64,000 nt of DNA from a virus: the IMG/VR virus record IMGVR_UViG_3300037483_000076, positions 1 through 64,000 of that record, one strand, 5' to 3'. Below the pieces are notes generated by a model. The model did no database searches. It was not told the origin of the DNA and saw only the letters and a program-made list of their open reading frames with translations. The position numbers and the translations under genes were made by a program. Below are positions 2,322 through 52,692 of the stretch, piece by piece; the stretch's first letter is position 1; each line of letters begins with the position of its first letter.

Positions 2322-3132
2322 TTATACAGATATCCCTATTGGATCAGCAATACCAGTTAGTGTTCCTGCATATGAAGCAGAGCAAGCTGTTATAAAATTA
2401 TCTGATGGATATAACCCTTATATAATAGGATCTGGAAGTACTGGAACATCTATTACTATACAAAATAGTACTGTTAAAGTATTTTCTGTAAGTAATGCTA
2501 TAACTACTCAACTTACTGTAGACGGTACAATTAATAATATAGTTATACTAACAGTTAATGGGTTAGAATATTATATAAATTTAGATTTTACATTTTCTGG
2601 AGCAATTATAACATTTATAGATGTTCTCCCATATGATAGTACATTTGGAAATACTACAGTTAAAGTTATATATAATACATTATCTACATCTCAAAATTTA
2701 ACAGCTTTAGCATTACTAAGTCCAGCTACTTTAATATCATTAGATACAACTACATTTGATAATAACTTAGATAGTACAGTGGTTAATGTACAGTTATTAG
2801 CAGAGGCAGTAGATGAATTAGTTGGTGGAGGAGGAACAACAGATCACTCTCTTCTTACAAATTTAAGTTATGCTACATCTGGACACACAGGATTTGCTCC
2901 AGCATTGGGTGTAGATGATAACTATGTAACAGATGCTGAAAAAATAGTTATAGGAAATACTAGTAATGTGAATACTGGAGATCAAGATCTGTCAGGAAAA
3001 CAAAATGTATTAATATCTGGAACTAATATAAAAACAATAAATAGTACTTCATTGTTAGGTACTGGTGATATAGTAGTATCTTCAGATACTTCAAGCGATC
3101 AATCAATTTTAGCAATACAAATATTTTCATAA
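2299..3132 (+). CDS. Tail fibre-like protein
   Basis: DHSLLTNL, NTGDQDLSGKQ and LISGTNIKTINSTSLLGTGDI fibre-type motifs. Confidence 0.6.
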   Translation: MEAIILGNYTDIPIGSAIPVSVPAYEAEQAVIKLSDGYNPYIIGSGSTGTSITIQNSTVKVFSVSNAITTQLTVDGTINNIVILTVNGLEYYINLDFTFSGAIITFIDVLPYDSTFGNTTVKVIYNTLSTSQNLTALALLSPATLISLDTTTFDNNLDSTVVNVQLLAEAVDELVGGGGTTDHSLLTNLSYATSGHTGFAPALGVDDNYVTDAEKIVIGNTSNVNTGDQDLSGKQNVLISGTNIKTINSTSLLGTGDIVVSSDTSSDQSILAIQIFS

Positions 3133-3140
3133 AGTAATAT

Positions 3141-3500
3141 ATGGCAACATTTACTAAAAAGATTTTAAGTGGCTCTACAGATGGAATGCCTATAAAAGTA
3201 GTAGCTACAGCAACCGCAGGAACTTTAATTCATACAGGATCTTCTACAGCAGCCAATCTACAAGAAATTTGGATATGGGCACAAAATAATCATACTGCTG
3301 ATGTAGTATTAACAATTGAATATGGAGATGCAACTGCTCCAGATCATAATATTATTAGTACAATTAAAACAAAAGCTGGACTATCATTAATTCTTCCGGG
3401 CATATTATTAAAAGGTAATACTACTCCAATAACTGTAAAAGCCTTTGCAGGAACAGCAAATGTAATAGTTTTAACAGGATTTGTAAATGAGATAGCATAA
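3141..3500 (+). CDS. Small tail/fibre-associated protein
   Basis: 119 aa beta-rich; TAATG coupling to next gene. Confidence 0.45.
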   Translation: MATFTKKILSGSTDGMPIKVVATATAGTLIHTGSSTAANLQEIWIWAQNNHTADVVLTIEYGDATAPDHNIISTIKTKAGLSLILPGILLKGNTTPITVKAFAGTANVIVLTGFVNEIA

Positions 3501-4579
3501 TGGCACATAATGTTTTTAGGAATAGAAGAGATTTAGGATCACAGTTATACTGTAGTCAGGTAATTACACAAGACTATAGAAGAAATTATCCAAATACTGA
3601 AATTCCATTAATTACATTTAAAACATCTAAATCAACAGGATTTTTTGGAGAAATAGCAAGGTTAAGTGGAACAGGATTAGCTAAATGGGATATGGGAGAT
3701 GGAACTATTCAAAACTCTAACTCTTTTATTTACAATTATGCAGATACTACTACAAAAACAGTTAATATATATTTAGGTACATTAATTGGAGAAACTGATA
3801 TAACATCTTTAAGAGTTTATTCTGATTTAATTTCAGGTACTTTGAACTTATCTAGGTTTAATGGATTAGTTGATTTACAGGCTTACTCTAACGCATCATT
3901 AAGTAGTGTTATATATCCGACTAATTCCACAAGTTTATGGACTAATATTTCTCTATATTCTACCGGATTAAGTGGGATACAAGATTTATCTAATATTGAT
4001 ATTGCCGGTACATTTCAAATATATTCAATTGCTGGAGTTACAGGGATTTTACATAAAGTAACATCAAGAACATTCTCAACATATTATGTTTCAAATAATA
4101 ATATGACAGGTACACATGATGTATCTATGTTAACTGGGTGGGGAGGAGATATAAGAGGAAATGGAAATGTAAATTTAACTACTTTAGTTTGTCCTACTTC
4201 TAGTACAATAATTTCAATTTTTTGGTGGAATGGCTGTAATCTGGGTTATTTAGATATATCAGGTTTATTAAATATAGGAGGTAACTTTCAAGTTCAGACT
4301 AATCCAAATTGTCAATATTTAACATTACCTACAACAATTAATAGACAATTTACTACATTCAATGCATCAGGATGTTCTTTGGATGTAACTTCAGTAGATG
4401 CTGTATTTAGTAAATTAAATACATGGTATACTGCTAACCCACCAACAGCAAATTTAACAATAAATCTTAGTGGAGGAACTAATGCCGCTTTAACAGGGGG
4501 ATTAGCTAATCCAGATTTAGTATCTTTAAATAATATATTTACAACAGCAGGAAGAATACTTTTTGCAACTTTTAATTAA
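3500..4579 (+). CDS. Leucine-rich-repeat-like protein with N-terminal PKD-like motif (candidate receptor-binding protein)
   Basis: WDMGDG motif then ~22-25 aa LxxLxxxxN-type repeats. Confidence 0.55.
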   Translation: MAHNVFRNRRDLGSQLYCSQVITQDYRRNYPNTEIPLITFKTSKSTGFFGEIARLSGTGLAKWDMGDGTIQNSNSFIYNYADTTTKTVNIYLGTLIGETDITSLRVYSDLISGTLNLSRFNGLVDLQAYSNASLSSVIYPTNSTSLWTNISLYSTGLSGIQDLSNIDIAGTFQIYSIAGVTGILHKVTSRTFSTYYVSNNNMTGTHDVSMLTGWGGDIRGNGNVNLTTLVCPTSSTIISIFWWNGCNLGYLDISGLLNIGGNFQVQTNPNCQYLTLPTTINRQFTTFNASGCSLDVTSVDAVFSKLNTWYTANPPTANLTINLSGGTNAALTGGLANPDLVSLNNIFTTAGRILFATFN

Positions 4580-39610: not shown

Positions 39611-39748
39611 TGGACTCTAGACAGGATTCGAACCTGTACGACTAATCCCACCTCAATCTTTCGATATATAGTATTCGTGAATCATAGTCTAAGCGAATAC
39701 CTAGCGTCTACCACGACTGGGTAACCCAATCCTTTCACCACTAGAGTC
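39611..39748 (-). ncRNA. Enlarged tRNA-like RNA (tRNA-Leu-like scaffold with inserted hairpins)
   Basis: Acceptor GACTCTAG/CTAGAGTC, T-arm ACAGG-TTCGAAT-CCTGT, TGGTG...GGTAGACGC D-arm remnants; no canonical anticodon arm. Confidence 0.7.
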
Positions 39749-49826: not shown

Positions 49827-50216
49827 TTATTTGTTATTTATTGATAATTCATATTGAGCTTTACATATACTAATTAAGTCAGGATCATTAAATGAGTACA
49901 TATCTGGGATATCTAATACTACACATTTATTAGTAAATCCTAATTCTTCTATCTCATTTTTAACTTTGTTATAATTCTCAGAATTAACAAAAACTATTTC
50001 GTCTGCCCATGTTACAAGAGCTTCACTAATTGGAATTAATGCATATGATTCCTCTGTACCACAATTTCTTACATTATATCCATATTCTCTAATGAGAAAA
50101 TTTTGTAATGTAGCAGACCTTAGTAATCCAGCAGAACATACAGTAAGTATTTTCTTAATAGTTCCTTGATAAACATTACTAGTAGTAGCTAATTGATTTT
50201 TTGTTCCCTTTATCAT
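49827..50216 (-). CDS. Low-molecular-weight phosphatase-like protein (LMW-PTP fold)
   Basis: ILTVCSAGLLRSAT (CX5R P-loop), WADEIV, LDIPD. Confidence 0.85.
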   Translation of the reverse strand: MIKGTKNQLATTSNVYQGTIKKILTVCSAGLLRSATLQNFLIREYGYNVRNCGTEESYALIPISEALVTWADEIVFVNSENYNKVKNEIEELGFTNKCVVLDIPDMYSFNDPDLISICKAQYELSINNK

Positions 50217-52692
50217 TTCTCTATTTTGTTAATAATTTTATTACATTCATTGATATAATAGTTATAATTAATATCATATTCTGACATAGATAATTTCTTA
50301 TATCTATTGAATACTGTGGATAAATATCCTTTTTCAACACTAGTTTCTCTACCATCTTCATTACATTTAATAAATGTTTTTCCATTAGTAGATACATAAT
50401 ATCTAACGTTTTTTGATAATTTGTTAGCTATTTGATAAGTTTTTTTAAGTTCGTCAATAGATTGATTTAGTGCTGTGGATAATCTAACTCCTTTTTCCAT
50501 TTCTGGTTTAGTATAGAGATTACCAAGTTCGATCCAATCATATTCTTTTATAAACTCTATCTTCTCATCTTTATCATTAAAGATTGGGATAATAGGTTCT
50601 TGATCGTAATATCTTTCTTCTAACCACCATCCTTTAACGGTTTTAACTCGTTTACAGAAATGGTATATGTTACCATGATTTAGTATAGTTTCTTCAATAG
50701 GTATGTTATTTATGAAGTAATTTGTTAATGCTATACGAACTATGCGCATAGAGTTATTCTTATGAATCTCTGACTCTATTTCAAAGTCACCTTTACGTTT
50801 AATCTCATTGTTATTATCTAAAGCAATGTAATCGTTTACAGATGTTTGAATTAAGAGTTTGTAATCTTTGTATTCAAGTTGACCTGATTCACTATTACCT
50901 ACTTTCTTTTCCCATTCATGACATATATCATAATACTTATTATTGAGATGTTTATCAAATAGACACACTATACCATCTGTATTAGCAGATACTACATGTA
51001 TATTATTTAACTCCATATCTTCTATAAGCATTAGAATCTCAAATTGATTACCAATTGTACAAGAGAATTGTACTAATGGATCAAATTGCCATGAATTTAT
51101 TTCATTGGTTTTACCAAAACCTCCCATACCACTATAGTTTTCACTACCGATCAAATACATTCGCGTTCACGTCTATGCCTAATTGTTTGTGGTCTGGACT
51201 ATATCTTAATAAACTGAAAGCCAACTTTTACTGCCCTTTGTGGGGCAAGCGACAGGACTCGAACCTGTTCTTAATAGTTTATTTTCCTGCATTTCTATTA
51301 TTTCTAATAGGTCTCTCGACAGTCTCTACGGCTGAATCTAATAAATCCCATATTTGTAATATCCGAATCATACGATCCGAATATAAAATTTATTAACCTA
51401 TGCCTCGGTATTAGCTTGTTATATTTAAGTGTTTATAGAAAGTTGCGAACTTCATATAACTGGTACACATAATTTAGCTTTCACCGATATTCAGGAATTT
51501 AAAAACGGCAGCTACGTTTACCGTTTAAAGCTAATTTAAATACCTCTTGTATAGAGTTATATTTAGCTTTCTTTGTTTTCTTATAAGTAGATTTAGCATC
51601 TAATCTACGAGATATATTATCTTTATATCCTTGTATCCATGCTTCACCTAAGTGTCTAGGATAGAGATTACGTTTGACAATAGCATTTGGGTATTGACTA
51701 CCTACATCTGCGTCACGAAGTATTTGTGACTCAGTGGGAATTAACTTCCTAGGCTTATCAACAGAATGTAATCCTCCTCTAGCTATAGTATAACTAGTAT
51801 CTTTAAATTCTAAATTAAAGATCTGTTTCTCTCCGTCTGTATCTTGTATTACAGGAGTATCTCTAATTAGATTATAAAAATCATTAAGTTCTTGTGTCTT
51901 AAAGTGTACGTAATTAGGAATACATTGTCCAAATGTAAAATTATCTATAAACTTAGGAAGTACTTTAATTTGTTTCCAATCTAATCCTGAGTTCTTAGAG
52001 TAATTAAGCTTGTTTAGTTCATCACCAATCTTAACATCATTGTAGTTAATACAATTGATACCAAACTCAGCTTGTATATCCTTACGTAATTGTAATTTAT
52101 CCTTACCTTTATATAGAGGATTTTCTGTATCTCCTATAGTAATCTTATAGAATTCATATGTAGCTAATACATCATTTAAGTTATAAGATAAGATATCAGT
52201 TACTTCTTCATCTGTAACATAATGACTAGGTTCAAATGGCATATCCTCGACATTTTCAAAGTCCATAGCTATTTCTACAGCCTTTAACGAGGTATGTTTA
52301 GCTTTATTATCAAAATGCCAGATCTTAAATAGATCTAATTGAGGAATAAGAGTTTTCCATTCAGGTATACTAGACCATTCTGTATTAATTACTTCATTAG
52401 ATTTGTTATAAATTAGATTAGTTAAATAATCTGGATATTCTGATATAGAATGTCCAAATAGTTCTAAATCTTTATATGTTAACAAATAGTGTAATATAGG
52501 GTAGTCATAATTTATATTATTAAATCCTATTAATCCCAAAACTTCGGTTTGTAAAAATTTGATATATTCTGAAAAGTCATTTCTGGATTTATGTATTACG
52601 AATTGTCTAATCTCCTGATTATCTATTGCTAAAAATGTAGCAGTATGAATATTCAACAGTACCTCAATATCGTAGACCCAGACTCTCTTCAT
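50213..52692 (-). CDS. polB: Family B DNA polymerase, two exons (52692-51520 and 51124-50213; 694 aa spliced)
   Basis: Exo motifs YDIE, GFNNINYD, YNLND; motif A DVGSQYPN; motif B KLALNG|GGFGK joined across intron; motif C NTDG. Confidence 0.9.
51125..51519 (-). mobile_element. Group I intron (IA2-like), 395 nt, no endonuclease ORF
   Basis: P1 AAACGGU/GCCGUUU with U-G at splice site; P ATATCGGTGAAAG, Q GCTAATACCGAG, R CGTAGAGACTG, S AAGATATAGTCC; P3 TTCCTG/CAGGAA; terminal G; removal restores frame. Confidence 0.92.

Follow-up and report, generated by a model that had tools for sequence, protein, structure and literature searches.

A tRNA-type T-arm hairpin in the P8 arm of a predicted group I intron that splits a phage DNA polymerase gene

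The minus strand of the phage record IMGVR_UViG_3300037483_000076 carries, between the two parts of a B-type DNA polymerase gene, a 395-nt group I intron whose P8 loop holds an insert built around a tRNA-type T-arm hairpin. The window analysed here is the first 64 kb of this 95.5-kb IMG/VR record, the GC content of which is ~30%. T arms of the same kind recur on the sense strand in the variable arms of related introns, and we favour, with moderate confidence, the reading that a T-loop hairpin derived from a tRNA has been reused as a cis-acting, peripheral structural module of the intron. A preliminary description of the window, made from its letters, had offered three interpretations of the segment: a captured tRNA fragment, a T-loop module in the periphery of the ribozyme, or a tRNA mimic released with the excised intron. 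The first two gain support here, as origin and as role, respectively, while the third does not.

The intron was identified with a covariance model, R1, built from an alignment (A2) of 21 short members of an intron family. Compensatory changes are found in P2, P4-P7 and P9 of this alignment, and one family member used for the model, L052, is an Rfam Intron_gpI match at 66 bits. Against the window, R1 scores 75 bits (E 6e-18 to 3e-20), with the full model covered and the 3' end placed exactly at 51125. The element is thereby classed as an IC3-like group I intron, with core helices P3-P9 detectable by the covariance model, and is predicted to be self-splicing. Rfam itself returned no intron or tRNA match over the intron region at gathering level or at E<=10, and the score for RF00028 was likely not reached because of the intron's large insertions.

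As the preliminary description had proposed, the segment lies inside the intron's P8 loop: the P8 stem follows the P3 3' strand (CAGGAA) and precedes the J8/7-P7' block. The features of the arm are as follows.

51208-51283, minus strand: P8, an 8-bp stem AAUAAACU/AGUUUAUU (51283-51276 with 51215-51208) that closes a 60-nt loop, seen in the minimum free energy (MFE) fold of the isolated domain and matched by a stem at the same place in relatives.
51216-51275, minus strand: the P8 loop insert, missing from the closest homologous intron, with 48% GC against 33% in the remaining intron.
51252-51268, minus strand: tRNA-type T arm of 5 bp with a UUCGAGU loop, recognised from its sequence and preceded by AUUAAGA (51275-51269), a lead-in also found in the introns L084 and L111.
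51241-51251, minus strand: look-alike of an acceptor 3' strand, CGCUUGC (51251-51245), followed by C (51244) and CCA (51243-51241), in register with tRNA 3' ends and with no 5' partner.
51231-51248, minus strand: hairpin H2, UUGCCC-CACAAA-GGGCAG (51248-51243 with 51236-51231), its four G-C pairs at probability 0.96-0.98 in the ensemble of the entire intron.
51217-51228, minus strand: hairpin H3, AAAG-UUGG-CUUU (51228-51225 with 51220-51217), weak, from the MFE fold of the isolated domain.

From 5' to 3', the 60-nt loop thus consists of AUUAAGA, the T arm, CGCU, H2, GUA, H3 and a final C. The minus-strand stretch 51268-51241 begins with ACAGG (51268-51264), UUCGAGU (51263-51257) and CCUGU (51256-51252), and the T-arm consensus is satisfied in full (G53, U54, U55, C56, R57, A58, C61 and a 5-bp stem). 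The T-loop motif, U-U-C-G-A closed by a G-C pair, is likewise satisfied at the level of sequence. The exact tRNA spacing reported earlier, 7 nt, a discriminator and CCA, is present in the letters of a stretch that lies within the intron and that, by prediction, pairs in H2. The short hairpins said to follow the T arm are present too, AAAG/CUUU as described and TGCCC/GGGCA extended by a U.G pair to UUGCCC/GGGCAG. In the whole-intron ensemble the T stem has a pair probability of 0.85. H3 and the AU-rich P8 stem appear solely in the isolated-domain fold, the probability of H3 being ~0.03 in the unconstrained whole intron. A terminal stem at the P8 position is found in 40 of the 41 distinct family members examined, with very diverse sequences, and the P8 stems covary.

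These features bear directly on the suggestion of a tRNA mimic. On this account, which we regard as unlikely, the T arm and the CCA end of the excised or processed intron would bind tRNA-specific proteins in trans, as a decoy, as a processing or CCA-related signal or as a handle for T-arm enzymes. The perfect T-arm consensus and the exact spacing to the CCA would suit such a role, as would the two further non-canonical T-arm RNAs encoded on the same strand of a genome with no canonical tRNA, and TruB- and TrmA-type enzymes can act on a T-arm hairpin alone. However, the absence of a matching 5' acceptor strand nearby, already remarked upon in the preliminary description, extends to the minus strand of the whole 95.5-kb genome, where the pattern GC[AG][AG]GCG is found at 78338 only. 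The 7 nt ahead of the T stem (AUUAAGA) are unable to pair with CGCUUGC, and the acceptor helix that defines a mini-tRNA is lacking. With no 5' acceptor strand nearby, no acceptor/T minihelix is possible, and RNase P, the CCA-adding enzyme and the synthetases require one. Moreover, H2 consumes U69 to C74, that is, most of the acceptor/CCA look-alike, with a pair probability of 0.97, and an acceptor-like strand or CCA after the T arm is absent from all of the sibling modules in related introns. The Rfam tRNA model, run on 106 nt alone, gives a truncated match at 14.3 bits against a threshold of 29, in which the variable region, the T arm and the acceptor strand are aligned in register, and ARAGORN reports no tRNA in the window.

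Pure chance resemblance is a very improbable explanation. Given a T arm, a CCA falls in register by chance in ~1-2% of cases, and several T arms were examined; because the CCA accompanies the window's T arm alone among the five related intron T arms examined, it is weak evidence when taken by itself. On the other hand, the 28-mer running from T arm to CCA never arose in shuffles, the 17-nt T arm matches the tRNA consensus fully, and T arms are enriched across the intron family. The 11-mer GGTTCGAGTCC, allowing at most one mismatch, occurs twice in the window where 0.14 copies are expected, the other copy (39634-39624) lying in a tRNA-Leu-like RNA.

With the T-arm motif defined as G53..C61 with four or more stem pairs and a loop UUYRANN, 48 distinct family introns (17.4 kb) contain five T arms in the sense orientation and none in the antisense orientation, compared with a mean of 0.16 and a maximum of 1 in dinucleotide shuffles. 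The five occupy different arms, namely P8 (window), P7.2 (L084 and L111), P9a (L103) and P6 (L055), and a 3-bp version is found in P9a of L099. All of the sibling modules retain U54, U55, Y56, G57 and A58. The window module and the P7.2 modules of L084 and L111 also have in common the unusual lead-in AUUAAGA: all the DNA retrieved contains 233 unbiased T-arm contexts, and TTAAGA lies immediately 5' of the T stem in these three only. Between them the second stem pair (50-64) changes in a compensatory manner, from C-G in the window to A-U in L084 and L111. The six-base 3' strand of P3 has P7.2 on one side and P8 on the other, and therefore the same module is found on either side of one junction. 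The strand-specific enrichment and the common lead-in make the T-loop module in the ribozyme periphery the best supported of the three earlier interpretations.

At a single helicase P-loop site, the L084 intron has a T arm in P7.2, that of L103 has one in P9a, and those of L067, L053 and L078 have none. T-arm content thus differs among introns at one site, and these hairpins therefore come and go. The five introns are of the same subfamily and sit at one site in the Walker-A (GxGKS) region of a helicase-like gene, and their peripheral arms are very different. When the introns were compared with 102 phage tRNAs by BLAST, the clearest matches (E 3e-5 to 0.04) were to T-arm regions, in four introns; the anticodon region of a tRNA-Met was matched as well, by two introns. 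In the contig of L111 (6.4 kb), several intron-model matches follow one another at 2650-4070 on the minus strand; its T-arm intron has a P1 pairing, UUAAACGGU with GCCGUUU, as in the window intron, and the flanking exons differ. A test for circular permutation between the insert of the window and that of L084 or of L111 gave no significant result (p = 0.12 and 0.32, respectively), and this idea was rejected.

The preliminary description had proposed a comparison of P8 among homologous introns. The closest phage (L002/L104), with 90% identity in the polymerase exons, carries a homologous intron at this site that has the same P1, P3, P4, P7 and J8/7, a plain P8 hairpin and no P7.1 or P7.2. The earlier description had held that absence from homologous introns would count against its reading of the segment, and the segment is indeed absent from this same-site intron of L002. 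Because that intron is presumed to splice, the insert is presumably not needed for splicing.

Searches for further copies of the insert were negative. In IMG/VR, its 24-mer, 17-mer and 21-mer gave no matches or two chance matches in coding DNA. Against GenBank phages, the insert and the whole intron matched tRNA genes plus one unannotated place, or nothing, and in the records of five related phages the insert matched the tRNA-Arg 3' exon of L109's phage only. The pattern ATTAAGAANNGGTTYGANTCC had three unrelated matches in IMG/VR, one of them a genuine tRNA-Thr, and a metagenome scan with a 16-mer of the P7-P7.1 region returned mostly chance matches and no additional family member.

The matches that the insert does have point to tRNA genes. 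Its core, from T arm to H2, is 60% GC compared with 33% for the remaining intron, and its BLAST matches among GenBank phages are tRNA genes for Arg and Thr plus the one unannotated place, and nothing else. The 21-mer GGTTCGANTCCTGTCGCTTGC is found in six GTDB genomes, in four of the six in register at tRNA 3' ends, three of these being tRNA-Arg(ACG). The 24-mer is identical at 22 of 24 positions to the 3' exon of an intron-bearing tRNA-Arg(UCU) in L109's phage. On the basis of the GC contrast, the tRNA-gene matches, the register of the GTDB 21-mer and this 22/24 identity, the T arm of the insert is likely derived from the 3' part of a tRNA, so that the captured fragment of the preliminary description is supported as an origin.

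Many short family members sit in the anticodon loops of phage tRNA genes, and the tRNA-Arg(UCU) of L109 is split after U34, between positions 34 and 35. Family introns of ~206 nt split the anticodon loops of tRNA genes, including tRNA-Arg(UCU), in L109, L063, L066, L068, L081 and L094, and ARAGORN leaves the split phage tRNAs of these six unreported.

A tRNA origin is also what would be expected if the insert were a neutral passenger, and this is the chief alternative. A 3' fragment of a tRNA gene would have been put into a permissive P8 loop (L8) by illegitimate recombination or repair and would persist as a harmless closed hairpin with no function. We consider this possible, if doubtful. The insert is a singleton with no homologue and is missing from the closest same-site intron, its GC content of 48% (60% in the core) marks it as foreign to the intron (33%), and its 22/24 identity is to tRNA-Arg(UCU) 3' exons of phages that have the same intron family. 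An in-register CCA would be expected of a fresh capture from a CCA-encoding gene. P8 is moreover permissive and variable across the family, with loops of 3 to 66 nt, and even accommodates an open reading frame (ORF): L069:1876-2454 (minus strand), between P7 and P7' in the P8 region, encodes a 192-aa NUMOD4 + HNH_3 homing endonuclease. L054 and L057 have an insert of a size similar to that of L069. What neutral capture leaves unexplained is that T arms are the tRNA part seen in the sibling introns, that they are enriched 30-fold and strictly on the sense strand, and that a lead-in atypical of tRNA is common to the window module and to modules in a different arm.

The endonuclease ORF in the same arm of L069, together with a mini-tRNA at ~72.2 kb of the same genome, could instead suggest that the insert is what remains of a small mobile element, whether a mini-tRNA insert that has decayed or a scar left by a homing-endonuclease cassette since lost. 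This we find distinctly unlikely: the defining acceptor helix is missing, the similarity to the 72-kb mini-tRNA is limited to the T loop, and there is no ORF remnant, the 113-aa ORF antisense to the intron having no family match.

Other tRNA-like elements are encoded in this genome and its relatives. The mini-tRNA (~48 nt; GGAGU...GAGAG-UUCAAGU-CUCUC-A-ACUCC) lies beyond the window at 72180-72240 on the minus strand. A tRNA-Leu-like RNA of ~138 nt at 39611-39748 (minus strand) has a perfect acceptor (GACUCUA/UAGAGUC) and T arm and large insertions, and is missed by ARAGORN and Rfam. Its T arm (39637-39621) differs from that of the intron by one base, as had been stated. The genome has three T-arm elements, all on the minus strand, of which the mini-tRNA is the third and last, and it has no canonical tRNA. 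Among relatives, L008 has a long tRNA-Leu-like gene ~650 nt upstream of its polymerase, and L107 has five long tRNA-Leu-like genes in tandem with the same ACAGG/CCUGU T stem.

In the reading that we favour, reuse of the hairpin as a structural module, the element would be a lineage-specific extension of the P8 arm of a predicted self-splicing, IC3-like intron in the B-type DNA polymerase gene. The core of the insert would be a T-arm hairpin taken from the 3' part of a tRNA, with the best matches to tRNA-Arg, tRNA genes being frequent hosts of the intron family. The hairpin would act in cis on the RNA as a stable element whose loop may dock a purine or a loop from elsewhere and so aid packing of the periphery, and catalysis would not depend on it. 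The in-register 7 nt, C and CCA would be a leftover of the tRNA origin or a coincidence and, folded into H2, would have no role as a tRNA 3' end. In FMN and cobalamin riboswitches, T-loops in 7-nt terminal loops are an established means of long-range docking (bioRxiv 10.1101/2022.12.26.521914). The window element resembles the modules of T-loop and T-loop receptor in these riboswitches, RNase P and rRNA in its 7-nt terminal loop, in the U, U, C, G and A that open this loop and conform to the T-loop pattern, in its short G-C-closed stem and in its location in a peripheral arm; it differs from them in that it retains the T-arm consensus of a tRNA in full and not just a degenerate T-loop.

Several observations weigh against a structural role. 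We identified no docking partner (receptor) for the UUCGAGU loop, and the fold of the P8 domain is unexceptional (z = -1.5). Since the closest intron presumably splices without the insert, any benefit must be small or context-specific. The insert has no homologue in any collection searched, and so the insert in its entirety gains no support from covariation or conservation. The family introns were collected with exact-pattern scans and form a non-random sample, and T arms could recur through capture, time and again, of a hairpin that is stable and harmless, and not through selection.

A variant that we judge quite unlikely makes the T arm a deliberate tRNA mimic. TruB- and TrmA-type enzymes accept isolated T-arm hairpins as sufficient substrates and have RNA-chaperone activity. 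The intron and its siblings might recruit such host T-arm-specific enzymes, which would aid folding of the ribozyme, or the abundant excised intron might soak up a tRNA-directed host factor.

The remaining features of the intron are those of a group I core with peripheral extensions.

51125-51519, minus strand: group I intron of 395 nt with an IC3-like core, extra P7.1 and P7.2 and extended P5, P6, P8 and P9, identified by model R1 and by the same-site homologue in L002.
51503-51526, minus strand: P1, formed by exon AAACGGU (51526-51520) and the internal guide GCCGUUU (51509-51503), seen in the sequence and paired in the fold.
51329-51321, within 51284-51329, minus strand: 5' strand of P7 (R element), GUAGAGACU, a family-conserved block.
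51320-51311, within 51284-51329, minus strand: P7.1, GUC-GAGA-GAC, in family-conserved blocks.
51310-51295, within 51284-51329, minus strand: P7.2, CUAUUA-GAAA-UAAUAG, a stem that covaries between L084 and L111.
51289-51284, minus strand: 3' strand of P3, CAGGAA, whose partner is UUCCUG at 51497-51492, a family-conserved block.
51185-51207, minus strand: J8/7-P7' block (S element), a 23-mer found unchanged in 58 IMG/VR contigs.
51125-51148, minus strand: terminal P9 hairpin with a GAAA loop, P9 closing strand GUGGU and terminal G at 51125, the family-conserved 3' end.

The U.G pair of P1 lies at the 5' splice site, the guide of P1 is located 11 nt into the intron, and the terminal base of the intron is the G at 51125. 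No terminator-like sites were found, and promoter-like sites were at chance level.

The two ORFs that adjoin the intron, both on the minus strand, match one phage DNA polymerase family, phrog_1252.

51520-52692, minus strand: DNA polymerase exon 1, ending ...KLALNG, matching phrog_1252 positions 52-409; uninterrupted homologues continue directly into exon 2.
50213-51124, minus strand: DNA polymerase exon 2, starting GGFGK..., matching phrog_1252 positions 410-652; homologues align from ORF residue 13.

The polymerase is a phage B-type enzyme, and the intron interrupts its KLALNG|GGFGK motif exactly between phrog_1252 positions 409 and 410; joining of the two exons restores this conserved motif in frame. 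In ~19 related phages the polymerase is uninterrupted, with KLALNG|GGFGK or close variants (KLxxNG|G(G/S)(F/Y)GK) across the junction, which are variants of the polymerase-B motif K-x3-N-(S/G)-x-Y-G. The bounds 51519-51125 follow from these homologues, which read across the junction point. The first 12 codons of the exon-2 ORF as listed (51160-51125) are intron sequence. Its apparent ATG start at 51160, inside the intron, is a by-product of mechanical ORF calling, as is the 113-aa ORF with a TTG start at 51055-51396 on the plus strand, antisense to the intron. The sole nucleotide match to the polymerase among GenBank phages includes Cellulophaga phage phi14:2. The homologous polymerase genes of other phages (L024, L026, L029/L045, L032, L036/L037, L041 and L044) have inserts of 0.3-2.7 kb at other positions; these are other intron types or inteins that model R1 does not recognise.

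The window intron's core presumably resembles those of the IC3 introns of Azoarcus and cyanobacterial tRNAs. Like the IC3 introns of bacterial tRNA genes (Azoarcus tRNA-Ile and cyanobacterial tRNA-Leu(UAA), RF00028), it has the core blocks P4 UCGGUGAA, P6/P7 GUAGAGACU and J8/7 AAGAUAUAGUCC and a P9 with a GAAA hairpin. Short relatives of the window intron sit in the anticodon loops of phage tRNAs, one of them an RF00028 match. In contrast to these introns, the window intron lies in a protein gene, has no P2, has P7.1 and P7.2 and large P5, P6, P8 and P9 extensions, and falls below the Rfam score. For crAss-like phages, group I introns have already been published from PolB and from further core genes (Yutin et al. 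2021, PMC7886860), and the window intron is likewise in PolB, in a Bacteroidota-type phage of ~95 kb. Those introns were recognised via endonuclease ORFs, whereas the window intron has no ORF, and no tRNA-like peripheral element is described there (PMC7886860). The mimicry of a tRNA within a larger RNA is a property shared with viral and cellular tRNA-like structures (TLS) such as the plant virus 3' TLS and mascRNA. These mimic the whole L-shape or, at the least, the acceptor/T minihelix and are processed or charged by tRNA enzymes, whereas the window element forms the T arm only.

Both T-loop modules and the group I introns of phage polymerase genes are already well known. What appears to be new, within a limited literature search in which we found no description of T-loops in group I intron peripheries, is the tRNA-type T-arm hairpin as a recurrent, movable building block of these peripheries. 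Such elements can mislead the annotation of tRNAs or attachment sites. If the T arm recruits host T-arm enzymes, a self-splicing intron would be co-opting host proteins in a novel manner. If the insert is neutral, it would be a record of the transfer of tRNA sequence to an intron in phages whose tRNA genes carry the same intron family. If the module does aid folding, the T-loop would join the few known peripheral contacts, tetraloop-receptor pairs and kissing loops, and the intron would be a concrete case of reuse, by a ribozyme, of part of the tRNA gene that is its usual host.

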